Of a stretch of DNA of 64,000 nucleotides, positions 23,657 through 40,764 are shown in pieces. The stretch's first letter is position 1. The number at the start of each line of letters is the position of its first letter. Origin of the DNA: Clostridia bacterium (GTDB lineage Bacteria > Bacillota > Clostridia > TANB77 > CAG-508); the NCBI GenBank assembly GCA_045643465.1, contig JAZUKV010000033.1, forward strand, positions 24,295-88,294, given 5' to 3'. The translations under genes and the position numbers were made by a program. A model generated the notes under the pieces. That model worked only from the letters and a program-made list of their open reading frames with translations, was not told the DNA's origin and ran no database searches.

Positions 23657-23767
23657 TTAAATTAAAAGCATATAATGAAGTTCTAATCGGAAAATCCGGT
23701 ACAATTTCAATTATATATATATACTTAAGAAGAGAATAATAAATGTAATTTGAAAGGAGCAATTAAA

Positions 23768-24460: not shown

Positions 24461-24513
24461 TAATATAGAATTTAGCAAAAAATCAATAACAGATTTTGAA
24501 AGGAGAATTTAAA

Positions 24514-25515: not shown

Positions 25516-25538
25516 TAAAATATATTGTAAAATATTAA

Positions 25539-25568
25539 AACAAGAGCTTAGAGCTCTTGTTTTTTTTA
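25539..25568 (+). terminator. Rho-independent terminator closing the gap...GGGtGRT cluster
   Basis: caagagc-tta-gagctcttg followed by T9. Confidence 0.7.
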
Positions 25569-25651
25569 CAATTTTATTTAAGAAATTAAAAAATACTTGC
25601 ATTAATATTAACTAATAGGTATAATAAAACTACAAATTAAAAGGAGAAAAA

Positions 25652-26011
25652 ATGAGAAAAAGATTTATATGTGCAATTGCTATGCTTGCTTTGGGAATAT
25701 TAATTTATTACATTTCAAAAAAATATTTTCAAGTTAGTGGTGGAGAAATCCTTAAATTTATTAGAAATTATATACCAGATTCCCTATGGTCAATTAGTTT
25801 TTATTTAGTTAGTAGTTCCATTTTAAAGCAAATTTCAAAAAATTATAATTGGTTAGCTTTGCTATATTGTGCGGTTTTCTCAATTTTATTTGAAGTATTA
25901 CAAAAGTTTAATATAGTTAAAGGAACTTTTGATATTTTTGATATTGTCACATATATGGTTTCTCTGCTTTTTATTTGTTTTTTAGATGAAAAAAAGGAGG
26001 AAGGAAAATGA
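25652..26011 (+). CDS. Small membrane protein, 119 aa, about 4 TM
   Basis: Preceded by a consensus-like promoter (TTGCAT, 17 nt, TATAAT) and an SD. Hydrophobic profile. Confidence 0.75.
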   Translation: MRKRFICAIAMLALGILIYYISKKYFQVSGGEILKFIRNYIPDSLWSISFYLVSSSILKQISKNYNWLALLYCAVFSILFEVLQKFNIVKGTFDIFDIVTYMVSLLFICFLDEKKEEGK

Positions 26012-26526
26012 GTAAATTAAAGTATTTAGTGTTATTATTAATATGTGGAATTGTTTATTTTATGTTAGCTGTTGGAAGTTCATCAGATTCAACCAGTGTA
26101 TCTAGTAATAGTGATGGAAGTGGAGAAACAACGATTTATCACTTAAATGAAGATATATATATCACAAAATCTACTGGAAAATATAGAGTAAAATTTACAA
26201 ATATAAAAGAAACTAAAGAAAGAAATCAATATTCTGATAAAGAAGCAAAAAGAGTAATCGTAATAGATTATGAGTATGAAAATATTGATCAAGAAAGTGA
26301 TTTGTATGTATCTGATGTTACAAACTTCAAATTATATGATAAAGACAATAATGTATTAGAAACATATCCTGTAGATATAAAATATGCAACATCAATAGGA
26401 AAAGGAAGAAAAGGATCAGCTTCAGTTGCATATGCACTTAATAATGATTCAAATTATATAGAGCTGGAATATTACGATAATACATGGAATAGTTCTCCTG
26501 ATTGTAAAGTAATATTTGAATGGTAA
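26008..26526 (+). CDS. Secreted or membrane-anchored beta-rich protein (DUF4352-like), start overlaps the upstream stop
   Basis: N-terminal TM or signal sequence followed by a Ser-rich linker. ATGA overlap with the upstream gene. Confidence 0.75.
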   Translation: MSKLKYLVLLLICGIVYFMLAVGSSSDSTSVSSNSDGSGETTIYHLNEDIYITKSTGKYRVKFTNIKETKERNQYSDKEAKRVIVIDYEYENIDQESDLYVSDVTNFKLYDKDNNVLETYPVDIKYATSIGKGRKGSASVAYALNNDSNYIELEYYDNTWNSSPDCKVIFEW

Positions 26527-26557
26527 AATATTGAATTTTTAGGGAAATAATTTATAA

Positions 26558-26598
26558 AAAGCAAGGTAGACTTCAGATGAAGTAACCTTGCTTTTTTA
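26558..26598 (+). terminator. Rho-independent terminator
   Basis: agcaaggt...accttgct followed by T6. Confidence 0.65.
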
Positions 26599-26606
26599 TT
26601 GAGCAA

Positions 26607-26638
26607 AGAAAAAACGACATTGCAGTAGACAATGTCGT
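26607..26638 (-). terminator. Candidate terminator downstream of tRNA-Gln
   Basis: acgacattg...caatgtcgt. On the minus strand it is followed by a T-run. Confidence 0.5.
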
Positions 26639-26727
26639 AAAAATAAAATGAAAAAAAGGATGGAACGTGTTATGATCGAATAATTGAAGATTTCATTTTA
26701 TATAAATACAAATGTATAATAACATAT

Positions 26728-26802
26728 TGGCTGGGGTACTGTGATTCGAACACAGGAATGTCGGAGTCAGAGTCCGATGCCTTACCGCTTGGCGATACCC
26801 CA
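26728..26802 (-). tRNA. tRNA-Gln (anticodon CUG) with encoded CCA
   Basis: The reverse complement folds as a cloverleaf. The acceptor stem is TGGGGTA/TACCCCA, the anticodon stem is tcgga/tccga with loop cuCUGac, a GTTCGAATC T-loop is present, and the 3' end is GCCA. Confidence 0.9.
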
Positions 26803-26883
26803 ATATAAGTAAATTACATTAAAAATAATAACATAGTATGAATCAAAAATCAATTAAAATTTTATATTATATATAACTTTTTA

Positions 26884-27188
26884 AACTTTTTTTCATAGAA
26901 TATATAAACTATTTTATGGAGGAAAGATATGGCAAAAATTTTAGTATATAATAATAATACAAATAGAATGGAAACATATTATCGTGGAGAGCAAGAAGCA
27001 ATGCCGTATAATGCTAATAATACACTATTAGTAAGAGAATTTAGAGGAGCAAGTAAAAGTAAAACTTTATGGACTACTAGAAGCACTATGCTTGCATGGA
27101 ATTCTTTAAGATATATATATGGTGCTCCAATAAAAGTAGGATTTGCTTTTAGAAGACCATGGGAAGGTGGCCATACAGGGTAATCACA
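26884..27188 (+). repeat. Left copy of a ~305 bp direct repeat covering the promoter, SD and first 84 codons of the M15 peptidase gene
   Basis: Aligned by eye to 37334-37635. The coding part is 253/255 identical. The upstream ~45 nt is more diverged and has one indel. Confidence 0.9.
26929..27183 (+). pseudogene. Truncated 5' copy (84 codons) of the M15 peptidoglycan peptidase gene
   Basis: Identical to the N-terminus of 37376-38056 except K45 for Q45. It ends at a TAA where the full copy has CAA, just before the metal-binding SQHxxxxxxD motif. Confidence 0.85.
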
Positions 27189-27445
27189 TGACTAAATACA
27201 TACAGTTGAACATATAAAAATTTGAGATAGAAGATAGATAGAAATAGTGTTTTTAGATAATATGTAATTTATAATTATTAGTGATACTTATAGTGTGTAT
27301 AAGAAAAAAGAATTGGAAAGAACTCCTAATTTATGTTAACATAAAACATAATAGACATGTCATAAATACGAAAGAATATGTAATAGTTTTGTAATAGCAA
27401 TAAATTAAATGGATTATTTAAATATAAATTTTAGGAGGGAAAAAT

Positions 27446-29107
27446 ATGACAAGAGACGAGTTAGAAGAACAAATAAGAAGCGTATTAAGTAAAAAATTAT
27501 CACAAGAACAAATGACAAGAGGAAAAATAAGTGAAGAAAATGTGGCTATTATAGCAGACAGAATAGTAAGTGCTATGGGACCAGAACTTGAAAAATATAT
27601 ATCAGAAGTTGAAATTGAAAGGACTTCTAATCCAGATGAATTTGCTGAAAAAGTAATTGAGAGCAAAATAGAATACGGTTATTATGGCGACAGGAGTGGT
27701 TATCACAAGGATGATGGTACTAGCTCTAGTTTTACAACACCAGTATATGGAAACTTAGAACCAGGAAACTATCATTATGATTATGTTGTCTATTCAGATT
27801 TATCTAGTGAAGAAAACGAAGAAAAGAACTTACCAGATTTTTCAATGAATGGATTACAAGTTGCTATTGTTGACAGAATTGATGATTATGCTTCAGGAAC
27901 AGCAATTCAAATATATATACCAGAAGAGAGAGAATACGAAGTTGTAAGTTATAAAGAAATGAAAGAAATTGCTGAGAAGGAAAAAAGAACACCATTTGTT
28001 AAATTAGTAAATCAATTAATGCTAAAAATGGAAGCATCATTAATAGTAGAAGGGTCAGAAGGATACAGAAACTATACTGATTTTGGAAGAAGAATATTGA
28101 GTGAAATAATGGGAACAGACGAATATATGACTGGTGCAACAGAAACTAGCGAAAGTGAAATTAATAAAGATAACTGTTTTACTATTGGAATGTTGAAGGG
28201 TGAATATTCTGAAACATATAGTTATGATAAGAAAATGGATTGTGATATTGCATTTGAACAATATCTTGATATAGAGTTGTTAGAAAATGATAAAGTTAGA
28301 TTAATGGTTAGAACTATGGACTATGATGAAACTAGAGCTGATGAAGATATGGAAAGAAATTATTATCCAGTAAGTGTGGTAGTTTCTATAGAAGAATTAC
28401 AGAAGTTTTCTGATTCTTTACCAGGATTGTATCCAAAGCTTCCTGAGGGAATGATTGCTAATGAACAGTTTTTCAATGATAATGGAAGATTTTCTGAAGA
28501 TGAAGTTAGAGAGTTTTTGAAACAAAAATATGTACCAGGACAATTCTTAGATATTGGTGAGTATAAACATGGAGACAAATATATAAATATTCCAAATGAA
28601 ATGGTAACCGAGCTAACAGCTGATATGTATGAACAATATAAAGAAAATTTAGTTGAGGTGTCTATACCATACTCAGTTAAAAAAATAGATAAAGGAACTT
28701 TTTCTAATTGTCCTAAATTAAAAACTGTAATAATGTTTGATATTCCAGAAGTGAAGAATCCTTTCGAATTATTTGAAAACTGTAATGAATTGGATAAAAT
28801 ACTTATTGTACCACAAGAGGCAAGCAAATTTTATAGAAAAGAAAATGATCTTCATGAAAATTTATCTATTGGACAAAGTATTAGACAAAATGAAAATGGA
28901 GAAATGGTAACGACTTACCATGTGTTAGATTGTAATTTTGAAAAAAAATGTAGTTTAAAGGAGATTAATAAGCCTAAACATGATATTTCAGATGTTACAG
29001 AGGTAATTTCTGATAGAAGAAAAGAGAGCATTAATGGAGTTGTTAATGAAATTGTTAAAGCTACGCGTGATACTGAGAAAGACGTTAAAGAATCACAAGA
29101 AATATAA
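27446..29107 (+). CDS. Orphan acidic protein A (553 aa) with a C-terminal BspA-type leucine-rich repeat
   Basis: Strong SD. VSIPYSVKKIDKGTFSNCPKLKTVIM...FENCNELDKILIV fits the LRR_5 pattern. No signal peptide and no NTPase motif seen. Confidence 0.8.
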   Translation: MTRDELEEQIRSVLSKKLSQEQMTRGKISEENVAIIADRIVSAMGPELEKYISEVEIERTSNPDEFAEKVIESKIEYGYYGDRSGYHKDDGTSSSFTTPVYGNLEPGNYHYDYVVYSDLSSEENEEKNLPDFSMNGLQVAIVDRIDDYASGTAIQIYIPEEREYEVVSYKEMKEIAEKEKRTPFVKLVNQLMLKMEASLIVEGSEGYRNYTDFGRRILSEIMGTDEYMTGATETSESEINKDNCFTIGMLKGEYSETYSYDKKMDCDIAFEQYLDIELLENDKVRLMVRTMDYDETRADEDMERNYYPVSVVVSIEELQKFSDSLPGLYPKLPEGMIANEQFFNDNGRFSEDEVREFLKQKYVPGQFLDIGEYKHGDKYINIPNEMVTELTADMYEQYKENLVEVSIPYSVKKIDKGTFSNCPKLKTVIMFDIPEVKNPFELFENCNELDKILIVPQEASKFYRKENDLHENLSIGQSIRQNENGEMVTTYHVLDCNFEKKCSLKEINKPKHDISDVTEVISDRRKESINGVVNEIVKATRDTEKDVKESQEI

Positions 29108-29124
29108 TAACTAAGGAGTAAAAT

Positions 29125-29454
29125 ATGGTAAGTGTAGAATTTAGAGAGAGCATTACTGAAATTTTGGAGATATTAAATCATATGGAGAAACGTTATACAG
29201 ATAAGATTCCTAAAAAGTTTATGTCATTTTTAGAAGAAAATAAGTCTACTGCCTATGAGCCTAATTTTGATCATTCAAGAAAACTAAGTGAATTGAATTT
29301 AAAGGAAAAGACAAAAGACTTTTTGGCAATTATGTATATTAAATATTGGTGCTCTCTAGAAGAAAAAGCAAAGTATGAAGATTCCCTTATAGAAAATGAA
29401 AGAAGATATCAAGAAAAAATAAAAAGATTATATAATGTTACTAATAATTTTTAA
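29125..29454 (+). CDS. Small partner protein a (109 aa), paralogous to 32195-32635
   Basis: SD (aaggag). It shares a DKIP...(D/A)YEP...D motif and overall spacing with protein b. Confidence 0.75.
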   Translation: MVSVEFRESITEILEILNHMEKRYTDKIPKKFMSFLEENKSTAYEPNFDHSRKLSELNLKEKTKDFLAIMYIKYWCSLEEKAKYEDSLIENERRYQEKIKRLYNVTNNF

Positions 29455-29461
29455 TTATAAA

Positions 29462-29505
29462 AGAAACTCAAAACAAGTAATGATACGGCTTTGAGCTTCT
29501 TTTTG
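29462..29505 (+). terminator. Candidate terminator
   Basis: agaaactcaaa...tttgagcttct (one mismatch) followed by a T-run. Confidence 0.5.
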
Positions 29506-29575
29506 GCTATACATAGAGTATTGTTTACAAATAAATTTATATGGTATAATGAATGTGTGGTTAAGGAGGTTTAGT

Positions 29576-29614
29576 TTGAAAGAAATGAACTTTCTTTGCT
29601 ATATGTGCCTTTGA
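29576..29614 (+). CDS. 12-codon uORF (TTG start), or the displaced true start of protein B
   Basis: The only strong SD in the region (aaggagg) lies 6 nt upstream. It reads MKEMNFLCYMCL and overlaps the B frame out of frame. Confidence 0.3.
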   Translation: MKEMNFLCYMCL

Positions 29615-32217
29615 GCGAAGTGAGAAAGGAATGTGAGTTTTCTATGAATGTAAGTAAAATGTTTAATTATATGAATAGGCTACCAATAGAATTAGACAGA
29701 CTTTTAGAGGAAATAAATAAATTAAATTCTGGAAAGTTAAATTATTCTATCCAAGAGCTACAATCACTTGATTTATCATCGGATAAAAGTGAAAATTTCA
29801 GAATTTTAACGGAGACAAATGAGTATCTAGGATTGTGCAATGCTTATTTTTCAGAGAATCGACCTGGAAACTCACGTGCAAGAAATGCATATGGAGAGTA
29901 TTTAGATAAGAAAAACTTAAGCGATGATGTAGATATTGACATTTCTGATTTAAAAAATAAAGTATTTACGTTAGCGGATTTATCGTTTAAAGCAAATAAG
30001 TTAACAAAGGTAATTTGCGAAAATACTATTGATGTTTTAGAAGGTAAAAGAATAAATTCAGATGGTGCGGATGTAAAAAATCCTGAACTTAAATACGTAA
30101 TTGAAGAATTGCAAGATATATATATAAATTCTAATGAAGAAAAATATCGTAGAAATTCTGTTGAGGACCAATTATCAGGTTTAGTTGAAAAACTTAAGGT
30201 GAAAAAAAATAATGCTTGGAGAAAGAATTTTGACCCTTCTCTTTCTGATGAAAAGGCAATAGATCTGTTATTTAATGACTTGTGTTGTATTTGGAATATT
30301 AGAGATGTATTGTACGAAGTGAAAACTCAGCTAAACACGGAGTTAATTAGATGTTTAATTGAAGATAATTATACAGAATTTAAAAATTGGGGATTTGCGA
30401 AAGATGAAAATGGCAAATTAGTATTTAATTTTGATTCGAAGCAAGTTGCTGAGAGATATGGATATCATATACCGGAAAAAATGCAGGATAGAGTCTTAAG
30501 TGAGCAATTAATTAAAGAATATGAAAATGGTAATGTTCCGTACATATTAGATTTTACGAGCATAATCAGAAAAAACAATCTTGATAGAATTGTAAATAAT
30601 TTGGGCTATGATGGAAGGGAATTCTTGAGTCAGTACCGACCAAGAGCTGTAGATTTATTGACGAGTATTGATTTAGAAAATTACAATCAAGCTAATTATG
30701 AGAAGATAAACGAACTATATTTATTGGGAAAGTTCATGTCAGAAGGCTTATACAATCGAATTCAGAAGGATCATCCAGAACTTGAAAAGAACTGTAAAAT
30801 ATTAAAAGAATGGGTTAATCCATCAAAAGATAGTAAATTTGACCTATCAGAATTAAAAAAACAAGCTTATCACACAAAATATGAAGAGTATCTTAAAGGT
30901 AAGATAGAAGAGATTCTAATGGGGACAGGTGATAGTAATGGAAGAATTTATATTCAAAGTGGAAATAATTTGGATATACAAGCATCAATATATGCATTAA
31001 AAAAGCATATGAAGGATAATTTTCAAAAGAATATTGATGTTTATAAAATAGATGCTGGTGAGCAAATTGAAGGTAGAGGATTATACTTAGATGCTGGAAG
31101 ATTAGAAGGCATTGAAGGTTATGTTAAAAATGTGAAAAATTACGAAAAAATCCCCGTAGTAAGAGTTATAAATGCAAATATTTTAAGAGCACAAAAGTCG
31201 ACTTGTGGAGTATTAAAGCAGTATGGTATTTATGTACCGGACAAAATTGTTCAATATGCAGATGGCGTACATGTTGAAAAGATTCTATTGGCAAGACATG
31301 GTGTAAATGTATGCCGATACTTATCGAATAAAAAATTATTTGATTTTGCTGAAGAAAGAAGAGCAGATGGTACATATTTATTTGATACGGAACTTACAGA
31401 CGAGGAGCTAAAAAAATATTCTACAATACCAAAAAAAGGTAAAGGTCAAGCGGTTGACTTAATTGCAGAATGTGACAAAAGGGAAAAAATGATTAGAAGA
31501 GATGTAAAGTATATTGCTAATAATACGTATACTATACATACAAAAGAAGGAGATAAATATTTAGCTATTGCAGATCACCATGTAAACAATGGTGCTATGA
31601 TTTCATACTCGTTAGGATGTGATTATTATTTATCTGTAGCGGATAATCCTGCAGAATTTGATAAAACTCAAAATTATTATATACCGGGCCGTGCGACGTT
31701 TGCGGTTAATGCTAATCCAAGAAAAGGTGATGGAACATTGCCTGAACAGCTGATAGAATGGTGCAAACAATTAAGAGATGATGGTAAAAATGATAAATTT
31801 AAGATGTATACCGTTGCAAGAGATTGGTCAAGTGGAATTACAAGAAAAGAAGGTACAGAGGAAAAGCCTTTTGTAAAAAAGACCAAAGATCAAGTTGTAT
31901 TTGGAGGACGAAAAACGCCGCATTTATTTGTTACATTTAATGATAACAAAAAAAGTGGAGATAATTTGAAAGATGAAATAATTGCTGCTTTGTTGGATGA
32001 AATTAGAGGTAAAAACAAAATTGAGAAGACAAATCCTATGTTTCTTATGAATACAAGTGTAGGTAATATGAATCTTGCTAATGCTAAAGATTTAATGTAT
32101 AGTATTATAAATAGTTTTGAGACAGAGCTAACAATGGAAGAGCAACAAGTTAAAGTTATTGAGGCTATTGCTAAAGAAAAGGGAGAGGTTGATCATGGTA
32201 GTATCATTCAAAAGTAA
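29596..32217 (+). CDS. Orphan protein B (about 857-873 aa), no family recognised
   Basis: Long ORF. Candidate starts are TTG 29596 (no SD), ATG 29644 (weak SD), or 29576 if a 1-nt indel is corrected. It has its own TATAAT promoter at about 29545. Confidence 0.8.
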   Translation: MLYVPLSEVRKECEFSMNVSKMFNYMNRLPIELDRLLEEINKLNSGKLNYSIQELQSLDLSSDKSENFRILTETNEYLGLCNAYFSENRPGNSRARNAYGEYLDKKNLSDDVDIDISDLKNKVFTLADLSFKANKLTKVICENTIDVLEGKRINSDGADVKNPELKYVIEELQDIYINSNEEKYRRNSVEDQLSGLVEKLKVKKNNAWRKNFDPSLSDEKAIDLLFNDLCCIWNIRDVLYEVKTQLNTELIRCLIEDNYTEFKNWGFAKDENGKLVFNFDSKQVAERYGYHIPEKMQDRVLSEQLIKEYENGNVPYILDFTSIIRKNNLDRIVNNLGYDGREFLSQYRPRAVDLLTSIDLENYNQANYEKINELYLLGKFMSEGLYNRIQKDHPELEKNCKILKEWVNPSKDSKFDLSELKKQAYHTKYEEYLKGKIEEILMGTGDSNGRIYIQSGNNLDIQASIYALKKHMKDNFQKNIDVYKIDAGEQIEGRGLYLDAGRLEGIEGYVKNVKNYEKIPVVRVINANILRAQKSTCGVLKQYGIYVPDKIVQYADGVHVEKILLARHGVNVCRYLSNKKLFDFAEERRADGTYLFDTELTDEELKKYSTIPKKGKGQAVDLIAECDKREKMIRRDVKYIANNTYTIHTKEGDKYLAIADHHVNNGAMISYSLGCDYYLSVADNPAEFDKTQNYYIPGRATFAVNANPRKGDGTLPEQLIEWCKQLRDDGKNDKFKMYTVARDWSSGITRKEGTEEKPFVKKTKDQVVFGGRKTPHLFVTFNDNKKSGDNLKDEIIAALLDEIRGKNKIEKTNPMFLMNTSVGNMNLANAKDLMYSIINSFETELTMEEQQVKVIEAIAKEKGEVDHGSIIQK

Positions 32218-32635
32218 AAATACATATTCAGAGGTTTTTGAATTATTGAAATATGTTGATAGAAATGATTTAGATAAAATACCAATAGATATTTTAAATG
32301 CGATAAAAGATAACAGAAATAAAGATTATGAACCGAAAATTGATTTTAGTAATTTAAAGAATTGTATAAGCGACGAAGCGGCAGCTCTTTATGTAGGATT
32401 ATGTAAAAAGTACATAGTTCAAGATAAGAGCGAGATTCAGGGTATTAATAAGGTATTATATGAAAATGAAATAAAGAAAAATGCAAAGACGGATTATGCT
32501 GTTTTTCATACTGAAGATGAAAGTAAGAATGAAAGTACTGAGTCGTTAGTGGTGTACAAAGAGAGCTCTATACGTAAAATTATAAATAGATTGAAATCTA
32601 TATTTAGAAGCGGAGGGAAAAAGCGTGGCAATTAA
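32195..32635 (+). CDS. Small partner protein b (146 aa), paralogous to 29125-29454
   Basis: SD (gggagagg) plus ATG at 32195, overlapping the end of B by 23 nt. It carries the DKIP...DYEP motif. Confidence 0.75.
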   Translation: MVVSFKSKNTYSEVFELLKYVDRNDLDKIPIDILNAIKDNRNKDYEPKIDFSNLKNCISDEAAALYVGLCKKYIVQDKSEIQGINKVLYENEIKKNAKTDYAVFHTEDESKNESTESLVVYKESSIRKIINRLKSIFRSGGKKRGN

Positions 32636-33506
32636 TTTTGATTATTACAAAACATTTTATTATGTAGCAAAATATAAAAAGATATCGTTAGCTGCAGAGA
32701 AGCTTTATGTTTCTCAACCGGCAATAACACAGACAATACAGAAGCTTGAAGATCAGCTAGGAAGCAACTTGTTTACTAGAACAAAAACGGGTATGGAGCT
32801 GACTGAAGTCGGAAAGAAACTATATGAGTTTACAAGTCAGAGTGTTGAGGTTTTAGATAATGTTGAATACAGATTTAGTAAATATGAAAATCTCGAAGAG
32901 GGTGAGGTTCGTATAAGAACAGGTAGCAATGTTGCGAAAATGATTTTATACGATGCCATTGAGAAGTTTGGTAAAGATTATCCAAATATTAAAATCGAAA
33001 TTGCAACAGGTGCCCCAAATCAATCAGTAGAGATGCTTCATACAGGCGAAATTGATATGGTACTAGTATATTTACCATATGAGCTAGAATATAGCAATTT
33101 ACAGGTTACAGAGTGCGCCAAAAAGGAATATCTTTTTGCTATGAGTAAGAAATATCAAGAAGATAACAATGTTGTAATAAACGAGATTACGGATTTAAAC
33201 AAGTATTCACTAATAATACCAAAAAAGAATTCAGCAACGAGAAAAATATTTGATAGCTACTACAAGGATTACATAACTTCATATCATTACGAAGTTGCTC
33301 AAGAGCAAATGAAAAAAGAGTTTATTAAGAGGGATATGGGGATAGGTTTTATCATCAAAGATGAAGTAAAAGAAGAACTAAAAAGTGGCGAAATTGTTGA
33401 GATTGAACTACCAAATATGAATGTTGAAGGTGCTATAGGTGCTATTACTTTTAATCATAAGTTAAACAGTTTTGCAACAAATAAATTATTGCAATATATG
33501 AAGTAA
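32625..33506 (+). CDS. LysR-family transcriptional regulator
   Basis: The N-terminal HTH reads FYYVAKYKKISLAAEKLYVSQPAITQTIQKLEDQLG. GTG start with a ggaggg SD, overlapping the end of b by 11 nt. Confidence 0.9.
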   Translation: MAINFDYYKTFYYVAKYKKISLAAEKLYVSQPAITQTIQKLEDQLGSNLFTRTKTGMELTEVGKKLYEFTSQSVEVLDNVEYRFSKYENLEEGEVRIRTGSNVAKMILYDAIEKFGKDYPNIKIEIATGAPNQSVEMLHTGEIDMVLVYLPYELEYSNLQVTECAKKEYLFAMSKKYQEDNNVVINEITDLNKYSLIIPKKNSATRKIFDSYYKDYITSYHYEVAQEQMKKEFIKRDMGIGFIIKDEVKEELKSGEIVEIELPNMNVEGAIGAITFNHKLNSFATNKLLQYMK

Positions 33507-33515
33507 AAATGTGGT

Positions 33516-33559
33516 GGATACCATTTATAAGTTAAGCTTATAGATGGTATTCTTTTTTT
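33516..33559 (+). terminator. Rho-independent terminator
   Basis: gataccatttataag...cttatagatggtat followed by T7. Confidence 0.65.
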
Positions 33560-33627
33560 GTATTTTACGAGAGGCAGGGAATATGCTAATATTATTATGT
33601 AAATAAAAAGAAGGGAATTTATTTGAT

Positions 33628-35850
33628 ATGGAAAAGTATGAAAATAAAACAAATGAAGAAATAGAATTTAAGAAGTACTTAGAAGAGTTTGAATTTAATC
33701 AAATGCATAGTAATAAAAGAATCTATGATGAAGATAATGACGAGGTTGAATATTTTGATGATGTAGATGAGGATGCTAGACATCAACTAATACATCAGGA
33801 GAGTAAGATAGGTCAAAGAGTATGCGAGACGAAGCTTTTTATTGATGAGAATATAGATTTCTTTAATTATGACACCAAAGGCCATAGCAAAGCAGATTGT
33901 GACACTAAAGATTCTTGTATGTTTTGGGCGTTATCAATGTACTGTGGCGGATGTGAATTTAATGAAAAAATATTTTTCAAAGCCTTTGAATTAATGGAAA
34001 ATAATGATATAGTGTATTTTTTATCGCATGAAGATGTTAATCATTTTTGTGACAATATTGACTTTGTAAAGAAAATGATAGAGCATTCAGGTGCGCCTAT
34101 AGAAGTATTTTCTTCAATACCAGAAAGCTCAATTAGAAAATACTTAAACAGTAAGGATACAATGCAAATGTTGTATGATATGGATGATGTTAAGTCTAAG
34201 TTCAACGGAGCTGAAATACTATCAATCTTATTGGTTCAAGTGAAAAAAATAAAAGAATTATCAGAAGACAAAGAATTTTTAATTAATTTGATGAAAAATA
34301 TCAGAGCAATTGAAAAAATGGATGATAAATCAAATTATCTGATTTCAGGAACTATTGTCGGTATATTATCTAATATAGATAAAAAATTTTTTGCAGATAG
34401 AAATAATATAGAGGCTGTATTAAGCTTTTTTGAGGATTCAAAATATGAATTTTTATTTTTAGAGGATAGCGAGAAGGAAGAATTTTTTGATAGAGTTGTA
34501 AGTAATCCAGAGATGGCTAATGATAAGGAATTAGCATATAGATATATGTCAGTTTTTGATAGAAATGAAGGAGTAAATCCAAAGTTATATGAAGATGAAG
34601 AGTTTTTATTAAGAGTTTTGAATAACATACATGGAGCATCTTTTAGTAATATTGAAATACCTCACAGTCTATACAAGAATGAGGAAATATTGAGTAAGTA
34701 CATACACAGCAAAGATTTTTTGACGAACAAACTATTTTATGATTTTGATAATGATGTGCTTAAGAAGCTATTCAATGAGTACTATGGATATAGTATGGAA
34801 TACAGCGTTAGAAGTTTTATTGAATATTTAATAGAGAAAAAGCAATCAATAGTTGTATGCGGTGATGACGATACAAATATTGAAGAGGCGGTTAACATTA
34901 TACAAGCATGGGCTGAAGATAAAGACCTAGTTAAAATTGGACATAAAATAAATGTTATAAAAAGTACTGATAATAAAATACAAGAGAATCACTTAAATAT
35001 TGTGACTGGTGAAAATGGAAAATGTATGGGAAATAAGGAATATAATGAAGAAACGCTTGTATTGGACGGTAATAAAATATTGGAAACTTTAAAAATACTT
35101 GGGTTAGATACACGATTAGATATATATAAAATGCATGAACAATGTGAAGCTATGATTGAAAAAATTAATCAAGAAAGTAAAGAGCGAAAAATAATACCTA
35201 GAGATATTATTTATGCTGTGAATAATTCAGATTTAACAAACGGAGGGAAGAACCTCGTAGATATAAAATATCGAAGAGGATGTGATCCATATATTATTGT
35301 TTCAGTACCTCATCCTGAATATAGAAATGAGTATATTACTGAAAAAATCGATTGCAGAGAATTATATGAAATTATTAGAATTGCTAATGAAAATTCTTAT
35401 GAAGAAGGAATCGAAAAATTAAATAAAATTGCTGATGAAGGAATTAATGAGATTGTACCGATAGATAACTGGGCATCAAAAATAAGATTTAAAACCAAAG
35501 AAAATATTAAAAAAATAATTGGAACTATTGGAGAAGGCGATGATTCTCCATATGTAATTAAAAATGATATCCAAGATTCTGAAGAAGATTATCAATATGA
35601 AGTAATTATGCCACGCGAAGTTTTGGATGAAGAGTTTGGAACGGATAGCATTATATTAAAGTATGGTGAAATCAAAATGAATAAAGAGCAATTAGAGAGA
35701 TTAAATCAGAAACAAAAAGAAGTACAAAATATTATGATGAAGGCTCAAGAAAAAAAGTATATGGAAAAAAAAGTTGATGAGGCTAAAGATTTATTAAATC
35801 AATATGAAGATTTAACTGGAAATAAGAATAAGACATTTGATGGAGAGTAG
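33628..35850 (+). CDS. Orphan acidic protein C (740 aa), helical-repeat-like, no family recognised
   Basis: Long ORF. Has a Cys-rich N-terminal segment and repeated EFL(I/L)..(M/L)(K/N)N-type helices. No NTPase motif. Confidence 0.8.
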   Translation: MEKYENKTNEEIEFKKYLEEFEFNQMHSNKRIYDEDNDEVEYFDDVDEDARHQLIHQESKIGQRVCETKLFIDENIDFFNYDTKGHSKADCDTKDSCMFWALSMYCGGCEFNEKIFFKAFELMENNDIVYFLSHEDVNHFCDNIDFVKKMIEHSGAPIEVFSSIPESSIRKYLNSKDTMQMLYDMDDVKSKFNGAEILSILLVQVKKIKELSEDKEFLINLMKNIRAIEKMDDKSNYLISGTIVGILSNIDKKFFADRNNIEAVLSFFEDSKYEFLFLEDSEKEEFFDRVVSNPEMANDKELAYRYMSVFDRNEGVNPKLYEDEEFLLRVLNNIHGASFSNIEIPHSLYKNEEILSKYIHSKDFLTNKLFYDFDNDVLKKLFNEYYGYSMEYSVRSFIEYLIEKKQSIVVCGDDDTNIEEAVNIIQAWAEDKDLVKIGHKINVIKSTDNKIQENHLNIVTGENGKCMGNKEYNEETLVLDGNKILETLKILGLDTRLDIYKMHEQCEAMIEKINQESKERKIIPRDIIYAVNNSDLTNGGKNLVDIKYRRGCDPYIIVSVPHPEYRNEYITEKIDCRELYEIIRIANENSYEEGIEKLNKIADEGINEIVPIDNWASKIRFKTKENIKKIIGTIGEGDDSPYVIKNDIQDSEEDYQYEVIMPREVLDEEFGTDSIILKYGEIKMNKEQLERLNQKQKEVQNIMMKAQEKKYMEKKVDEAKDLLNQYEDLTGNKNKTFDGE

Positions 35851-35862
35851 TTGGAGGCAAAA

Positions 35863-36117
35863 ATGGAAAATGAATTCAGAAAAAAATTAAGAATGAGAAA
35901 ACAATATGATATTGTTAAAATTCTTGATGCTCAAAGAAATATTGATATAAATATAAATGATGAGTCAAAAGTACATAGTATTTTAAATAAATTAACAGCT
36001 GAGGAAAGAAAAGTACTTGCACAGTTGTATGATAATCAAATATTTGAATTAAAAAGCGTATTTAAAGACTATAAGAATCGAATTATAACGGAAAGAAAAC
36101 AACTTGGTGTTATATAA
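35863..36117 (+). CDS. Small partner protein c (84 aa)
   Basis: A ggagg SD lies 5 nt before the ATG at 35863, immediately after the stop codon of C. Confidence 0.7.
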   Translation: MENEFRKKLRMRKQYDIVKILDAQRNIDININDESKVHSILNKLTAEERKVLAQLYDNQIFELKSVFKDYKNRIITERKQLGVI

Positions 36118-36143
36118 CAGATTACTTGTTGTATCACAATAAG

Positions 36144-36176
36144 AGAAGGAGGGATTTTTCCCTCCTTTTCTTTTAC
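36144..36176. terminator. Bidirectional terminator
   Basis: gaaggaggga-ttttt-ccctcctt followed by a T-rich run. Confidence 0.65.
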
Positions 36177-36235
36177 AGTAATGATAAACGTATCAGCGAC
36201 AAAATTATCTACAACGTTTTTATCATGTCTAAGGT

Positions 36236-36613
36236 CTATTCATTTTTATCTTTATCGTTCTTTACACTTGCGACACCTTTTGTAATCTCTTCAGCCATTG
36301 TTCTTGCAGTTTTCGATACAGTAGGAGTCATTTTTTCAATTCCTTCCTGAGCAACAGGCATAACTTGTTGTGTATGGAATGCAATAAGTTCTCTTTTTTT
36401 AGAAGTCATATAGATAAATCCTGAAAACATAAGCGAAGAAATAATAACAAAAGGACCAAAGGTAATACCAAAACCTCCAGGAGATATTGTATTTCTTTTG
36501 TTAGATAGTTTTGAGCATTCTTTTTCCAATGTAGTTATTTTCGAATCAACTTCGGAATACCTATCACTAAAAGACTTATCATCTCTCCATATTTTATTTT
36601 TTTCTATTTTCAT
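36236..36613 (-). CDS. Hypothetical single-pass membrane protein (125 aa)
   Basis: ORF with a central hydrophobic segment, GFGITFGPFVIISSLMFSGFIYM. No SD is visible. Confidence 0.55.
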   Translation of the reverse strand: MKIEKNKIWRDDKSFSDRYSEVDSKITTLEKECSKLSNKRNTISPGGFGITFGPFVIISSLMFSGFIYMTSKKRELIAFHTQQVMPVAQEGIEKMTPTVSKTARTMAEEITKGVASVKNDKDKNE

Positions 36614-36655
36614 TGGTCTGTATTAAAAAATAGATTAAAAAAAGAAGGTAGTGAA

Positions 36656-37318
36656 GTGACTACAAAATGTAGTCAGTTAAAAATGTTAGCGCCTGATGGA
36701 AAAATACGTTTACGAGATGCAATGGCAACAAGTGACATATTTAGACTTATAGAATCAGTTCCAAGTCCAAAAGCCGAACCTTTTAAACTATGGCTTGCGT
36801 CTTTGGGTAAAGAAAGAATAGATGAAGTTTTTGATCCAGAAATAGCTGTTAATAGAGCGATTGATTATTATAGAAATAAAGGATATTCGGATAAATGGAT
36901 TGAAGCAAGACTAAAAGGAATACTAGATAGAAAAAATTAACAGATATATGGAAATATAATGGAATTAAAGAAAACTATGAATATGCAGTATTAACAAATG
37001 AGATATACCAAACATGGTCAGGAATGAAAGCATCAGAATATAAAAAATACAAAAATATTAGAAAAGAATCTTTAAGAGATAATATGACAGATGTTGAAGT
37101 TGCACTTACAGATTTGGGAGAAATTGCAACCCGTGAACTTGCAAAAAAAACATAAACCCCAAGGATTAAAAGCAAATAGAAAAATTGCAAAGGCAGGCGG
37201 AGAAGTTGCAAAAACTGCTCGTGACGATTTAGAACGAAAACTTGGAGAAACTGTTATTAGTAGAGATAATCAATTAAATTTTGAGTACATAGAAGATGTA
37301 AAAAAACTAAAAAAATGA
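36656..37318 (+). pseudogene. Bro-N/DinD-like (DNA-damage-inducible protein D family) gene remnant, 5'-truncated with two frameshifts
   Basis: SPKAEPFKLWLA...NRAIDYYRNKGYSDKWIEARL continues in a second frame as LTDIWKYNGIKENYEYAVLTNE...LRDNMTD. It then continues in a third frame as HKPQGLKANRKIAKAGGEVAKTARDDLE. The frame changes fall at A6 (36931-36936) and A8 (37143-37150). Confidence 0.8.
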
Positions 37319-37333
37319 AAAACGAAAAATACA

Positions 37334-37635
37334 AAACTTTCATAAAATATACAAATATTTTATGGAGGTTTTTTTATGGCAAAAATTTTAGTATATAATA
37401 ATAATACAAATAGAATGGAAACATATTATCGTGGAGAGCAAGAAGCAATGCCGTATAATGCTAATAATACACTATTAGTAAGAGAATTTAGAGGAGCAAG
37501 TAAAAGTCAAACTTTATGGACTACTAGAAGCACTATGCTTGCATGGAATTCTTTAAGATATATATATGGTGCTCCAATAAAAGTAGGATTTGCTTTTAGA
37601 AGACCATGGGAAGGTGGCCATACAGGGCAATCACA
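37334..37635 (+). repeat. Right copy of the ~305 bp direct repeat
   Basis: See 26884-27188. Confidence 0.9.
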
Positions 37636-38056
37636 GCATTTTGCAGGAGTGGCTTTTGATGCAGGCCAAACATTATCAGATAGTCAAAGATTAGTTTTAT
37701 ATAATACAGCAGTAAGTAGTGGGGTTTGGTCTTATGTGGAGCCATTAAATTTAACACCAAGATGGGTTCATTTCGATAAAAGACAATTTCCACCAGCATG
37801 TACCGCAGGAGGATATCCTTTAATTTCTAGCGGATCTAAAGGGGTATATGTATTAATAGCTCAAGATGAACTTAATACTTTAGGTTATGCAGCAGGAAGC
37901 TTAGATGGAATTTTTGGAAATAATACAAGAAATGCAGTTATAAGATATCAGAGGGCTAAAGGTCTTACAGCTGATGGAATTGTAGGATGTAATACATGGA
38001 AATCGTTACAATCAGATGTAGTGGGAATAGGCAAAAAAAATACAACGGTAGATTAA
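37376..38056 (+). CDS. M15-family peptidoglycan metallopeptidase with a C-terminal PG_binding_1 domain
   Basis: HTGQSQHFAGVAFD and WVHFD metal-site motifs. The PG-binding repeat reads LGYAAGSLDGIFGNNTRNAVIRYQRAKGLTADGIVGCNTW. Confidence 0.85.
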   Translation: MAKILVYNNNTNRMETYYRGEQEAMPYNANNTLLVREFRGASKSQTLWTTRSTMLAWNSLRYIYGAPIKVGFAFRRPWEGGHTGQSQHFAGVAFDAGQTLSDSQRLVLYNTAVSSGVWSYVEPLNLTPRWVHFDKRQFPPACTAGGYPLISSGSKGVYVLIAQDELNTLGYAAGSLDGIFGNNTRNAVIRYQRAKGLTADGIVGCNTWKSLQSDVVGIGKKNTTVD

Positions 38057-38061
38057 GAATA

Positions 38062-38097
38062 AAACGAGATTGAAGCTAAGCTTCAGTTTCGTTTTTT
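38062..38097 (+). terminator. Rho-independent terminator
   Basis: aacgagattgaagc...gcttcagtttcgtt followed by T6. Confidence 0.65.
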
Positions 38098-38190
38098 CTA
38101 TTGACAAATAATTTTTGTTAGAGGATAATATATCTATAAAAAATATGCAGAAGAAGAGTTTGTTAAATTACGAAGGAGGAAATTAAAAAT

Positions 38191-40764
38191 ATGTATGTTT
38201 TTAATAAAATAACTGTTATGCCACAGTTACCCGAAAGAATAAGAGGATTATCAATAATTGCTAATAATTTATGGTGGTCTTGGAATACTGAATTTTTACA
38301 ATTATTTAAAGTCATAGATATAGATTTATGGGAAAAAGTTAATAAAAATCCTATAAAATTTTTAAATCTGATATCTCAAGAAAAATTAGATTCAATAATA
38401 GAGGATAAAGATTTCTTAAAAGAATATGACGAAATATATGAAAATTTTAAAGATTATATGGAAAGCAAATCTACTTGGTTCACAAAAAAATATCCAAATA
38501 ACCAAAATGATTTAATAGCATATTTTTCGGCAGAGTACGGATTGGATGAAATTTTACCAATATATTCAGGAGGTTTAGGAATCCTTTCAGGAGATCATTT
38601 AAAATCAGCAAGTGATTTAGGAATTCCACTTGTTGCAGTAGGTTTACTATATAAAAACGGATATTTCCATCAAGAAATAGATGGTGCAGGATATCAAAGA
38701 GAGCATTATAAGACTATGGATGTTGGCTCTTTACCAATATTACCTGTTAAAGATGAACATGGTGAAGATGTATATGTAGAATGTGAATTGCCAAAAGGTA
38801 CGTTATATTTAAAAGTTTGGAATATACATGTTGGTAGAGCAAAACTTTATCTAATGGATTCAGATAATGAAAAAAATATAGAAGAATATAAAAAAATTAC
38901 ACTTTGCTTATATGGTGGAAACCAAGAAGATAGAATAAAACAAGAAATTGTTTTAGGAATGGCTGGTACAAAATTGTTGAAACAATTAGGCTATAATCCT
39001 ACAGTATATCATATGAATGAAGGACACTCATCATTTTTGACGTTAGAGCTTATAAAAAATATAATGGAAGAGCGAAAAGTTTCGTTTAATATTGCAAGAG
39101 ATATAGTGTCTTCAAAAACAATATTTACAACACATACACCAGTGCCAGCAGGAAATGATATTTTTCCAAAGGATTTGGTTAATAAATATTTTGATGGATT
39201 ATGGGATAAATATGGTATTTCCCATGAAGAATTTTTAAAATTAGGTATGGAACCAAAAGCTAATGTAGATAATAGTGATTTTAATATGGGGATTTTAGCT
39301 TTAAAAATAGCAGGAAAGAAAAATGGTGTAAGTAAATTACATAGAGAAGTTTCAAGTGAATTGTTTGCTGAAGTTTGGCCAAATATTAGTTCAAATGAAT
39401 CTCCAATAACATATGTAACAAACGGTATTCATACATGTTCATGGCTTGCTCCAAATTTAAAAAGATTATACAATAAATATTTAATTCCATTTTGGCAAGA
39501 TTCAATATATGATGATAATGTTTGGAATAATATTAGAAATATTCCAAATGAAGAGCTTTGGGAAGAGCATTTGTTAAGAAAGAAAAAATTATTTGAATTA
39601 GTTAAAGAAAGTACTACAAATAGATTAAGAAGAAGCGGATATACATATGAACAAATAAATCAGATAACAAGCAAGCTTAATCCAAATGCTTTAACAATTG
39701 GATTTGCAAGAAGATTTGCAACATATAAAAGAGCTACTTTAATATTTAAAGAATTAGAGCGTATAACTCAAATATTAAATGATGAGAATAGACCAATTCA
39801 ATTAATCTTTGCAGGAAAAGCACATCCAATAGATAAAGAAGGCAAAGATTTGATTAAATTTATACATGAGATTTCTATGAAACCTCAATTTATAGGAAAA
39901 ATATTCTTGCTTGAAGACTATAATATTGGTATGTCAAGATATTTAGTAAGTGGTGTTGATGTTTGGCTAAATAACCCAAGAAGACCATTAGAAGCTTCAG
40001 GAACTAGTGGACAAAAAGCATCTGTAAATGGTGCAATTAACTTTAGTGTTTTAGATGGCTGGTGGGCAGAAGGATATAATACAAAAAATGGTTGGAAAAT
40101 AGGATCTGAAATTAATTATGATAGTTATGAAATACAAGACAATGAAGATTCTCAGGATTTGTATAATATTCTAGAAAAGAAAATAATTCCAACATATTAT
40201 GAAGAAGATAATGGAGTTCCAAATAAATGGGTTGATATTATGAAAGAATCTATTGCAACTACAGGTGGAAAATTTAGTACTTCAAGAATGCTTGTAGATT
40301 ATATGGAAAAATTATATATGCCATTATGTAATTTAACGAATAAATATTATACAAATTTGGAAACTGTTGGGCAGTTTAATGAATGGAAGAAAAAAGCTTC
40401 TTATAATTGGAAAAAAATTGAAATAACACAAAAAGATATTAATAATTTTAATAATGAAATTATAGAAGCAGGCAATAAAATAAATGTTGCTTGTAGAGTT
40501 AAATTACCAAATATTTCAATGGAAAATATTGAAGTTCAAGTGTATTGTGGACAAATAATGGATAATGGAAAATTAGAAAATGTAACTATAACAAATATGA
40601 ATTTTAAATGTAAAGATGAAGAGCTTGATGAATATATTTACGAAGCAGATATAGAGCTAAAATCAGGAGGTAATTTCGGTTATACTTGTAGAGTTATGCC
40701 AAAGCATGATATGATTTTAGATGCAGAAAATTTAGATTTAATTAAATGGATGGAAGAAAAGTAA
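38191..40764 (+). CDS. glgP: Alpha-glucan (glycogen/maltodextrin) phosphorylase, GT35
   Basis: GGLGILSGDHLKSASDLG and EASGTSGQKASVNGA (PLP-Lys region) motifs. Confidence 0.92.
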   Translation: MYVFNKITVMPQLPERIRGLSIIANNLWWSWNTEFLQLFKVIDIDLWEKVNKNPIKFLNLISQEKLDSIIEDKDFLKEYDEIYENFKDYMESKSTWFTKKYPNNQNDLIAYFSAEYGLDEILPIYSGGLGILSGDHLKSASDLGIPLVAVGLLYKNGYFHQEIDGAGYQREHYKTMDVGSLPILPVKDEHGEDVYVECELPKGTLYLKVWNIHVGRAKLYLMDSDNEKNIEEYKKITLCLYGGNQEDRIKQEIVLGMAGTKLLKQLGYNPTVYHMNEGHSSFLTLELIKNIMEERKVSFNIARDIVSSKTIFTTHTPVPAGNDIFPKDLVNKYFDGLWDKYGISHEEFLKLGMEPKANVDNSDFNMGILALKIAGKKNGVSKLHREVSSELFAEVWPNISSNESPITYVTNGIHTCSWLAPNLKRLYNKYLIPFWQDSIYDDNVWNNIRNIPNEELWEEHLLRKKKLFELVKESTTNRLRRSGYTYEQINQITSKLNPNALTIGFARRFATYKRATLIFKELERITQILNDENRPIQLIFAGKAHPIDKEGKDLIKFIHEISMKPQFIGKIFLLEDYNIGMSRYLVSGVDVWLNNPRRPLEASGTSGQKASVNGAINFSVLDGWWAEGYNTKNGWKIGSEINYDSYEIQDNEDSQDLYNILEKKIIPTYYEEDNGVPNKWVDIMKESIATTGGKFSTSRMLVDYMEKLYMPLCNLTNKYYTNLETVGQFNEWKKKASYNWKKIEITQKDINNFNNEIIEAGNKINVACRVKLPNISMENIEVQVYCGQIMDNGKLENVTITNMNFKCKDEELDEYIYEADIELKSGGNFGYTCRVMPKHDMILDAENLDLIKWMEEK

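Follow-up and report, generated by a model that had tools for sequence, protein, structure and literature searches.

Among the systems described so far, the one which the DNA reported here appears to resemble most closely is gin, a non-prophage gene-intervening element located in gerE of Bacillus cereus ATCC 10987 (PMC5595907). We analysed a 64-kb stretch of a Clostridia bacterium (GenBank assembly GCA_045643465.1, contig JAZUKV010000033.1, positions 24,295 to 88,294; referred to throughout as the window), in which an island lies between two copies of the 5' part of a peptidase gene. This island is probably a decayed copy of a non-phage integrative element, whose large serine recombinase (LSR) uses a fixed site within a conserved peptidoglycan-peptidase gene of gut Clostridia that form spores; the site lies at codon 85 and has the core AATCACA. 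By analogy, the family would act like the gene-intervening LSR elements of spore formers.

Like gin, the related loci L083, L055 and L059 have the architecture of a small non-phage element in a protein-coding gene of a spore former, with short att cores, serine-type recombinase genes and unrelated cargo. They differ from it in that the target is a peptidoglycan peptidase and not gerE, and excision timed to sporulation is hypothetical for them. Moreover, the window copy has neither a recombinase nor attR, and its target gene is uninterrupted.

The elements skin, SPbeta, vfbin, vrin and yin are prophage-derived and 15-135 kb in size. They are responsible for LSR-mediated rearrangements of the sporulation genes sigK, spsM, spoVFB, spoVR and yabG, respectively (PMC4191935, PMC5499854, PMC5025042, PMC10747680). 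An LSR gene at one end of a gene-splitting element, imperfect inverted-repeat att arms around a short common core, and an endospore-forming host are features which they share with the family described here. However, the repaired, non-excisable state observed in the window does not feature in the reports on these elements (PMC4191935, PMC5499854, PMC5025042, PMC10747680). Further differences are that the window element carries no phage genes, that the peptidase is not a documented sporulation gene, and that several LSR lineages use two sites in the peptidase gene.

Phage 21 and e14 integrate into icd by means of a tyrosine integrase and bring with them a replacement 3' gene end, which is diverged from the host copy. 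As in these cases, insertion into an open reading frame (ORF) has left a duplicated gene segment, with an intact gene next to a fragment. In the window, however, the duplicate comprises the 5' end and the promoter, it is 99 % identical to the host copy, and nothing similar is found in LSR-bearing relatives.

Novelty seems to extend to the target gene as well as to the att sites and LSR lineages, and the peptidase is not reported as a target in the literature which we found on gene-intervening LSR elements. To our knowledge, a stranded attL together with a neighbouring restored attB and a duplicated 5' gene end has not been described as an outcome; the processes from which it arises are known ones. 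The window copy is best described as a fossil of an LSR gene-intervening element with a repaired target, in which two features of an active member, the LSR and attR, are absent.

The direct repeat and its attachment site

The window is a low-GC chromosomal segment (27 % GC) with one tRNA gene. The first-pass annotation had described direct repeats with an offset of 10,447 bp, and a repeat search of the window bore this out: the two copies, 26928-27188 and 37375-37635, share 261 nt at 99 % identity at an offset of 10,447 nt and bracket 10.1 kb. The left copy (26929-27183, plus strand) is a host-derived, truncated peptidase gene, consisting of codons 1-84 and a TAA stop. As previously noted, it is cut off ahead of the metal-site motifs, the ORF ending just short of the invariant S86-Q87-H88...D95 and W130-V131-H132-x-D134. 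The right copy opens an intact gene of 226 aa (37376-38056, plus strand), with an M15-like domain and a C-terminal PG_binding_1 domain.

The repeat copies have exact shared runs of 133, 119 and 7 nt and only two mismatches. The first (27061; A in the left copy, C in the right) affects coding nucleotide 133 and places K on the left and Q on the right at residue 45, and the second (27181; T against C) turns codon 85 into TAA in the left copy, with CAA retained in the right. These two differences had been recognized earlier, but the homology had been thought to end at the second one; it actually extends for 7 nt (AATCACA) beyond it, as far as 27188/37635. The approximately 42 nt located 5' of the ATG (26886-26927 and 37333-37374) are related but diverged, as was also reported before, and the differences include a 4-T indel, a 1-nt indel, substitutions, and AAAGAT (left) versus TTTTTTT (right) between the Shine-Dalgarno sequence (SD) and the ATG. 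The earlier impression that the interior is less AT-rich holds for the direction of the difference (29.2 % GC in the island, 27.1 % elsewhere) but not for its significance, since 24.5 % of 10-kb windows have an equally high GC content; composition gives no significant or distinctive island signal in the window.

The left repeat copy ends within a putative attL (27165-27258, plus strand), composed of a host half-site, the core AATCACA (27182-27188) and a conserved element arm (27189-27258) which reads CATGACTAAATACATACAGTTGAACATATAAAAATTT...GTGTTTTTAGAT. The crossover dinucleotide CA, at 27187-27188 and again at 37634-37635, constitutes the last two bases of the repeat copies. An unoccupied attB (about 37612-37660; core AATCACA at 37629-37635, CA at 37634-37635) is present in the intact peptidase gene. 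Only one att arm was found within the window; attR is absent, with the unoccupied attB in its place.

A genome scan revealed several orthologues split at the same residue. Locus L058, whose peptidase shows 75 % amino acid identity to that of the window, retains only residues 1-87, followed by about 70 nt approximately 90 % identical to window positions 27189-27258, and thereafter by different genes. The same arm, likewise conserved at about 90 %, follows the same codon in L083, L084 and L085, as well as in the human-gut contig L102; counting L058, three further genomes have it. The complementary half was identified in a close relative, L055 (glgP 81 % identical), which has only peptidase residues 86-226; 115 bp upstream of these lies a gene (L055:1083-2690) for a 535-aa LSR with Resolvase, Recombinase and Zn_ribbon_recom domains. 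The arm beside this LSR, ATGTTCAACTGT, is the reverse complement of window positions 27203-27214.

Both halves occur together in L083/L084, i.e. in the metagenome-assembled genome (MAG) GCA_017511745.1, as parts of an 11.6-kb element without phage genes. Its order is pep[1-87]-attL-i553-i109-i873-i158-LysR-i740-i88-Bro-LSR-attR-pep[86-226], and the interior of the window island is collinear with this relative, which ends in LSR, attR and peptidase codons 86-226. Amino acid identities between the window and L083 amount to 74 % for i553, 67 % for i109, 57 % for i873, 59 % for i158, 84 % for LysR, 35 % for i740, 43 % for i88 and 78 % for Bro, and the 5' truncation of Bro is common to both. The attL of L083 reads ...AATCAATCACA on the host side and TGATTAAATACATACGGTTGAACAT beyond, and its attR reads AAATGTATCAACTGTATATACATAGTCACA followed by ACACTACGCAGG, with TCACA common to the two sites. 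When the host halves were joined in silico, an attB encoding in-frame GNQSQHYAG was obtained; joining of the element halves gave an attP with a dyad centred on the core CA, whose reconstructed sequence is AAAATGTTCAACTGTGTGGTAATAATCACATGACTAAATACATACAGTTGAACAT. In both L055 and L083, the arm beside the LSR and the window attL arm are inverted complements of each other. By these comparisons, the inner end of the left repeat is evidently an LSR attL. The window thus consists of attL, an unoccupied attB and an intact peptidase gene, with the LSR and attR missing.

The LSRs of L083 and L055 are 94 % identical over the first 325 residues and 77 % identical over the C-terminal part. The LSR gene of L083:17562-19158 and L084:17562-19159 is frameshifted at about residue 325, and the NCBI version of the MAG has a second frameshift at residue 49; these frameshifts could represent either real decay or assembly errors. 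The L083 and L084 records probably derive from the same data.

Pfam scans of the window detected no integrase, transposase, relaxase or LSR, in agreement with the first-pass annotation, and a tblastn search with a related LSR across all 64 kb found no LSR remnant (best E = 3.4). An LSR is present in the relatives L055, L083, L056 (frameshifted) and L059. The enzyme of L056 (L056:2523-4573) is different (about 35-44 % identical), but it uses the same codon-85 site; its gene is frameshifted into three ORFs. The att arms of L056, AAGTATACA...TGTATACTT, and its cargo are unrelated to those of the window element, and the locus looks like another decaying intervening element. A third LSR lineage (about 33 % identical; 519 aa, 9314-10873) was found in L059, whose element region (5666-11263) carries two radical-SAM/SPASM enzymes and a GNAT acetyltransferase as cargo. 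In this case the insertion occupies a second site, in the WVH metal-ligand motif (about residue 130). The peptidase gene is a recurrent target, invaded by three LSR lineages at two sites.

The attL arm had no match in IMG/VR and a single match (L102) in a JGI/ENA metagenome scan. Exact-sequence look-ups of the 84-aa stump and of i740 returned nothing, and no second copy of the window-type junctions was found by them. What is described above would constitute a new natural LSR/attB system, with a 40-50-bp target in a conserved peptidase motif, three orthogonal recombinase lineages using the gene and reconstructable attP/attB pairs, which would make it of practical interest for serine-integrase tool discovery.

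Empty sites, strain haplotypes and the origin of the second gene copy

Exact-protein look-ups identified same-species empty sites in four short-read metagenome contigs (L100, L101, L001 and L002). In L100 (7.6 kb) and L101 the order GGGtGRT-mem119-mem172-tRNA-Gln-peptidase-glgP is uninterrupted, and L100 is 99.7 % identical to window positions 23105-27188 and 99.5 % identical to positions 37338-41162. In L001 and L002, the tRNA-side upstream sequence is joined straight to one intact peptidase gene. An uninserted attB is therefore available both from these empty sites and from the in silico reconstitution of the L083 attL and attR. The island is an accessory insertion, as the first-pass annotation had proposed, its absence leaving one intact peptidase gene beside tRNA-Gln. 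The synteny pep-glgP-pyk-p115-nifS is also kept in the chromosomes of other species (L003, L005 and L055; in L005, tRNA-Gln is located 715 bp upstream of the peptidase gene). This conservation, together with the empty sites, indicates that the peptidase gene is a resident chromosomal gene and that the 10 kb are the insertion. The tRNA-Gln(CTG) gene of the window (26728-26802, minus strand; ARAGORN and Rfam), located to the left of the island and facing it with its 5' end as described earlier, is unchanged beside the empty site in L100/L101 and L001; it is a bystander and not the integration target.

Two haplotypes can be distinguished among the empty sites. Haplotype H1 (L001/L002) has TTTTTTT before the ATG and H2 (L100/L101) has AAAGAT; they are further distinguished by six single-nucleotide polymorphisms (SNPs) in window 38005-38058, at the gene's 3' end. 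The left flank and left copy of the window are of the H2 type (AAAGAT), with two changes of their own: Q45K, caused by 27061 C>A, and Q85stop, caused by 27181 C>T. Since the L083 attL retains CAA at codon 85, the TAA of the window arose later, and the left stump appears to be drifting and accumulating mutations. The right copy is identical in nucleotide sequence to the L001/L002 allele and is predicted to be the functional gene: it is of the H1 type in its leader (TTTTTTT) and at all six SNPs in 38005-38058, where it matches L001 and not L100. From 38296 onward (glgP) the window is again of the H2 type, matching L100 and not L001. The SNP table thus places a switch from an H1-like tract (the right leader to 38058) to the H2-like background in the interval 38058-38296, which probably represents the homologous end of a repair tract.

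Deletion of the island by RecA-type recombination should leave the left leader with AAAGAT, K45 or Q45, and H1-type 3' SNPs. This combination occurs in none of the four contigs with an empty site, which accordingly represent uninserted alleles and not revertants. We also considered, and rejected, the idea that they are assembler collapses of a window-type genome: their combinations (AAAGAT with Q45 and the H2 3' SNPs; the left leader with TTTTTTT) are unobtainable by jumping between the window copies, except within a 13-nt stretch. The strain differences are clustered: 54 nt at the end of the peptidase gene (38005-38058) contain six SNPs, and 264 nt at the start of glgP (38296-38559) contain seven. 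These clusters combine differently in three haplotypes, which points to frequent short-patch homologous recombination in this species, whose samples include those behind ERZ27247123, ERZ27247192, ERR6929684 and ERR6929713.

The right repeat begins at a presumably illegitimate junction. The foreign-type hairpin found there upstream of the peptidase gene (up_R, 37333-37374, plus strand; CATAAAATA...TATTTTATG, with the SD and TTTTTTT) starts 15 nt after the stop of a Bro pseudogene (37318) and leads into codons 1-85, which are seamless with the rest of the gene. It differs at several positions from its left counterpart (up_L) and resembles the promoter region of other species such as L005, with which it is identical over ATATACAAATATTTTATGGAGGTTTTTTTATG. 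Further to the left of up_R, no homology to the native upstream region was observed.

A tentative proposal, which is the most economical one and to which we give a little less than even confidence, is that the target was repaired by homology-facilitated illegitimate recombination with an uninterrupted allele from another strain. A chromosome of the H2 background carrying the integrated element would have recombined with DNA of a strain having the uninterrupted allele and would have acquired a tract reaching from up_R into the interval 38058-38296. The right end would have been resolved through homology between the peptidase 3' end and the start of glgP (38058-38296), and the left-end junction, made where the hairpin palindrome has its foot (37333), would be illegitimate. 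The same event would have removed the LSR and attR and generated the duplication of about 300 bp. Because only attL remains, site-specific excision would have been lost, and the cargo would be fixed unless RecA recombination between the repeats removes the island. This agrees with the earlier suggestion that loss can now proceed only by homologous recombination between the repeats, attL being present in the window without attR or a recombinase.

Homology-facilitated illegitimate recombination was reportedly described by de Vries and Wackernagel and by Prudhomme et al., both in 2002, while aberrant excision of the lambda-dgal type with subsequent Campbell integration belongs to classical lambda genetics. 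The window shares with both one homologous and one illegitimate junction, a duplicated anchor and the loss of adjacent DNA. These are mechanisms, however, and not families, and in the present case their action is deduced from junction anatomy and SNP haplotypes only.

The layout of the window, an insert between direct repeats with one truncated and one complete gene copy, is also that of a Campbell-type integration. A circle carrying a peptidase 5' fragment and integrating by homologous recombination alone, as the first-pass annotation envisaged, would account for the repeats, for the empty site and for a window without a recombinase. We nevertheless consider such an origin highly improbable. 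The 5' start of the direct repeat coincides exactly with the 5' foot of the upstream hairpin palindrome, and its 3' boundary is, to the base, the LSR crossover CA, so that, unlike in a Campbell integrant, the boundaries are not set by the extent of cloned homology. In addition, the adjoining 70 nt are an att arm conserved at the same codon in other species, and collinear relatives possess an LSR and attR; L083, L055, L058 and L102 all contradict this origin. A recombinase or att structure was also what the first-pass annotation had itself named as evidence against its reading. A Campbell integration as the second of two steps is another matter, and we regard it as possible but unlikely. An aberrant circle of the lambda-dgal kind, arising in a donor strain by excision of the LSR element and consisting of up_R, peptidase codons 1-85, attL, the cargo and Bro, without the LSR and attR, would have integrated by a single homologous crossover in the homology of about 300 bp. 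This model predicts the exact layout (truncated copy, insert, full copy), explains the foreign look of up_R, takes the att junction in the left copy to pre-date the event, and needs the same number of events as repair by an imported allele, one illegitimate and one homologous. It requires, however, that a non-replicating circle be transferred and survive, and that the recipient be an unobserved mosaic with the H2 leader AAAGAT, H1-type SNPs at 38005-38058 and H2-type glgP. The SNP haplotypes appear to favour replacement by an imported uninterrupted allele over a Campbell-type second event.

The fact that a non-native hairpin opens the right copy directly after an element gene might suggest that the element was built to bring its own promoter and codons 1-85 beside attR, so that the gene would keep working after integration as icd does with phage 21 and e14, with the LSR gene deleted later. 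This seems very unlikely, since the LSR-bearing loci L083, L055, L056 and L059 have no replacement 5' end and their LSR abuts attR, the H1-type tract runs about 420 nt past the crossover point (to 38058), and identity between the copies is 99 %, compared with differences of 15-30 % among orthologues. We attach equally little weight to an in situ route, in which an unequal illegitimate sister-chromosome exchange duplicates the peptidase 5' end, attL and the element, and the LSR then excises the distal copy. A resident element would suffice for this and the observed order would result, but the two leaders should then be identical, whereas they differ by substitutions and indels in 42 nt (AAAGAT versus TTTTTTT) and the right copy has H1-type 3' SNPs; an added gene conversion from a third allele would be needed. 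Derivation from a degraded prophage or plasmid, which the first-pass annotation had also put forward, or from a tRNA-Gln-targeted island, would fit the Bro/DinD-like gene, the lysin-like PG_binding_1 peptidase and a tRNA gene only 80 bp away, and is as improbable as the recombinase-free circle. No phage structural, packaging or replication genes are present in the window copy or in its 11.6-kb relative, and a PHROG scan of the island detected only the Bro-like pseudogene and the PG-binding domain, without phage structural, packaging or lysis genes or plasmid replication and transfer genes. Megablast of the island DNA against 50,697 phage and 72,556 plasmid records gave no match, the att arm is absent from IMG/VR, and the peptidase is a syntenic chromosomal gene in L003, L005 and L055. 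The tRNA gene, for its part, is intact in filled and empty sites, is not duplicated, points its 5' end towards the island and has no tyrosine integrase with it. Least credible of all is a mis-join of two strains across the repeat, which would make the left copy or the whole arrangement an assembly artefact. The window probably originates from a metagenome assembly, but the copies can be told apart at diagnostic sites, and the longest stretches over which they agree exactly measure only 133 and 119 nt. Each inner junction has a unique sequence, other genomes provide independent instances of the attL junction, and a strain chimera cannot make the junction between Bro and up_R.

Several observations weigh against the history of insertion, decay and repair proposed here. 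The repair route depends on few informative sites, namely one indel-substitution in the leader and the cluster of six SNPs, and these could also be accounted for by a mosaic host with Campbell integration. No database contig was found to have the donor haplotype, in which up_R would precede an H1-like gene, and the window arrangement is known from the assembled sequence. The LSR, attR and a recombination directionality factor were not found in the 64 kb of this genome which form the window, and a cognate LSR could sit elsewhere. Moreover, the LSR of L083/L084 is frameshifted, so that no fully intact cassette-carrying element is among the loci found. Finally, the cargo cassette adjoins the peptidase gene in two other species (L089 and L091, see below) although no LSR is present there, so that the adjacency could have another cause.

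An island without a recombinase has thus become a worked example of the decay and fixation of a site-specific element, in which one att site survives and the target gene was restored by duplication and not by excision. Island callers seeking an integrase together with att repeats would miss or misread such loci.

Cargo genes of the element

The interior ORFs and the frameshifted, 5'-truncated Bro/DinD-like gene listed in the first-pass annotation were all recovered. Adjacent to attL lies i553 (27446-29107, plus strand), which has one stretch of BspA-type leucine-rich repeats (Pfam LRR_5, E 6e-6, below the cut-off; PDB 4gt6, E 1e-9, residues 378-456) and only 9 homologues in 5.8 billion proteins. 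It is followed by the gene for a small protein, i109 (29125-29454, plus strand), a paralogue of i158 (29 % identity, E 3e-8 in blastp). The core of the cassette is i873 (29596-32217, plus strand; the database start is 29644, giving 857 aa), with 12 full-length homologues in 5.8 billion clustered proteins; when 1.84 billion representatives were searched with a profile, 76 unannotated ones matched (E <= 1e-3). Sequence searches of Pfam, NCBIfam and the PDB gave no match for this protein, and a Foldseek search with its AlphaFold2 model (confidence score, pLDDT, of 65) gave a RecJ/DHH-like structure as the best but not significant hit (E 0.1). The protein contains an ADHH tripeptide. Many of the profile matches cover only the C-terminal half (profile positions approximately 390-800), in other architectures.

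The next cassette member is the small protein i158 (32159-32635, plus strand); both large proteins, i553 and i873, are thus followed by small proteins, i109 and i158, which are paralogous. A LysR-family regulator (32625-33506, plus strand; Pfam HTH_1 and LysR_substrate) is 76-84 % identical in all cassette copies, and the terminator scan placed a terminator-like hairpin (33516-33552) after its gene. The protein i740 (33628-35850, plus strand) evolves fast, being 28-35 % identical to its counterparts in L083, L086, L091 and L094, and has no family or PDB match. The last cassette gene encodes the small protein i88 (35851-36117, plus strand; 39-43 % identical to its counterparts in L083 and L091). 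On the opposite strand is i125 (36236-36613), with one hydrophobic stretch recognized by eye and a terminator-like hairpin (36167-36146), for which no homologue was detected in related loci. Searches of Pfam, NCBIfam, PHROGs, PADLOC and PDB sequences for the function of the cargo were empty or marginal.

The Bro/DinD-like pseudogene (36656-37318, plus strand; 36656-36940 and 37091-37318) matches phrog_15286 and PADLOC PDC-S13 at positions 62-153 and 208-273 of 286. In L102, a backbone without cargo, the attL arm is followed by 190 nt and then by a full-length Bro/DinD gene; the block from i553 to i88 is therefore cargo, which replaces the first approximately 61 Bro codons in the lineage of the window and L083. 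Bro belongs to the backbone of the element family, and its 5' truncation is due to the cassette.

The cassette i873-i158-LysR-i740(-i88), a very rare gene cassette which travels on these elements as cargo, was found in six contexts (window, L083, L089, L091/L099, L086 and L094), and in four of the six species contexts it lies upstream of the peptidase gene. In L083 it is accompanied by the peptidase gene and an LSR. No LSR goes with it in the window, L089 and L091/L099, where an intact peptidase gene lies downstream of it. Away from the peptidase gene, it occurs in L086 (beside an IS110 transposase) and L094. In L089:10001-17440, L091:8202-16673 and L099 the cassette directly precedes the peptidase gene, the flanking genes are different, and there is no LSR, attL or left gene fragment; the peptidase gene of L089 is frameshifted at residue 96. 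These loci could represent either further "repaired" insertions or a functional linkage. In another Clostridia contig (L097:8582-11638), a pair of i553-like and i109-like genes lies directly downstream of a tyrosine integrase gene. Integrative elements of different kinds therefore carry this two-gene module.

The peptidase, its leader and a possible link to sporulation

The assignment of the target gene product to the M15 peptidases, made in the first-pass annotation, is only weakly supported: the Pfam Peptidase_M15_3 match of the window protein is below threshold (E 0.025-0.058), and the family matches 8 of 23 orthologues (best E 1e-4). The motifs SQH88xxxxxxD95 and WVH132xD, on the other hand, are invariant across all 23. 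Among cultured relatives, Amedibacillus dolichus and Pygmaiobacter massiliensis have orthologues of 55-56 % identity. Matches in a PDB profile search were confined to the PG_binding_1 part, and a fold search with the AlphaFold2 model, in which pLDDT is <50 around residues 77-91, likewise matched PG_binding_1 only, with no match for the catalytic domain.

The native leader, up_L (26886-26926, plus strand), which forms the start of the left repeat and contains CATAGAATA, is predicted to fold into an SD-sequestering hairpin (-14.2 kcal/mol, z -4.9) and is 100 % identical to the empty-site contigs; for up_R the corresponding values are -16.1 kcal/mol and z -6.7. A hairpin pairing with the SD is found directly 5' of the peptidase ATG in 12 of 14 species (L004-L022, L091 included), with z values of -3 to -8.5. 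The position of an invariant TCATAnAATA varies among species between the stem and the loop of the hairpin, which in several of them is followed by a U-run. No Rfam family was found for the hairpin, and RNAalifold applied to a MAFFT alignment of the hairpins predicted no pairs, because the stems sit in different registers between species. Candidate roles for the structure are those of a riboregulator that sequesters the SD, of an attenuator and of a palindromic operator.

About 29 of 33 orthologues (>=60 % identity) have the sequence CATAnnnTA 22-51 nt 5' of the ATG, as opposed to 11.7 % of 213 control ORFs. We take this sequence to match the -10 consensus of sigmaK and sigmaE. As the motif lies within the SD-pairing hairpin, an RNA-level regulator may be an equally good reading of the same region. 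The host is an endospore former, with the germination protease gene gpr, a gerAC-gerAB-gerAA operon (minus strand) and spoIVB in the window (12163-17483 and 45964-47208). Gene-splitting LSR elements of Firmicutes typically reside in mother-cell sporulation genes, i.e. sigK, spsM, spoVFB, spoVR, gerE and yabG (PMC4191935, PMC5595907, PMC10747680). We consider the chance that the peptidase is linked to sporulation to be about even; the few genes of spore formers into which intervening elements are known to insert are joined by one for a candidate cell-wall hydrolase.

A broader scenario, which is speculative and in our opinion doubtful, is that in uncultured gut Clostridia the peptidase gene might be targeted repeatedly by gene-intervening elements which are excised during development, a role not recognised so far, with at least three LSR lineages using two att sites, both in active-site-coding sequence. 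Host repair by an imported intact 5' half would then strand the element (attL only) and fix its cargo, and i873-i158-LysR-i740 may be coupled to the peptidase, e.g. as a spore-envelope or cell-wall module, and not be a passive passenger.

Outside the island, a homologue of the TauE/SafE sulfite exporter was identified at 4368-5120. It consists of two adjacent ORFs, one matching the C-terminal half of the Pfam model (120 aa) and the other its N-terminal half (116 aa), in swapped order, and represents either a two-gene arrangement or a rearranged gene.

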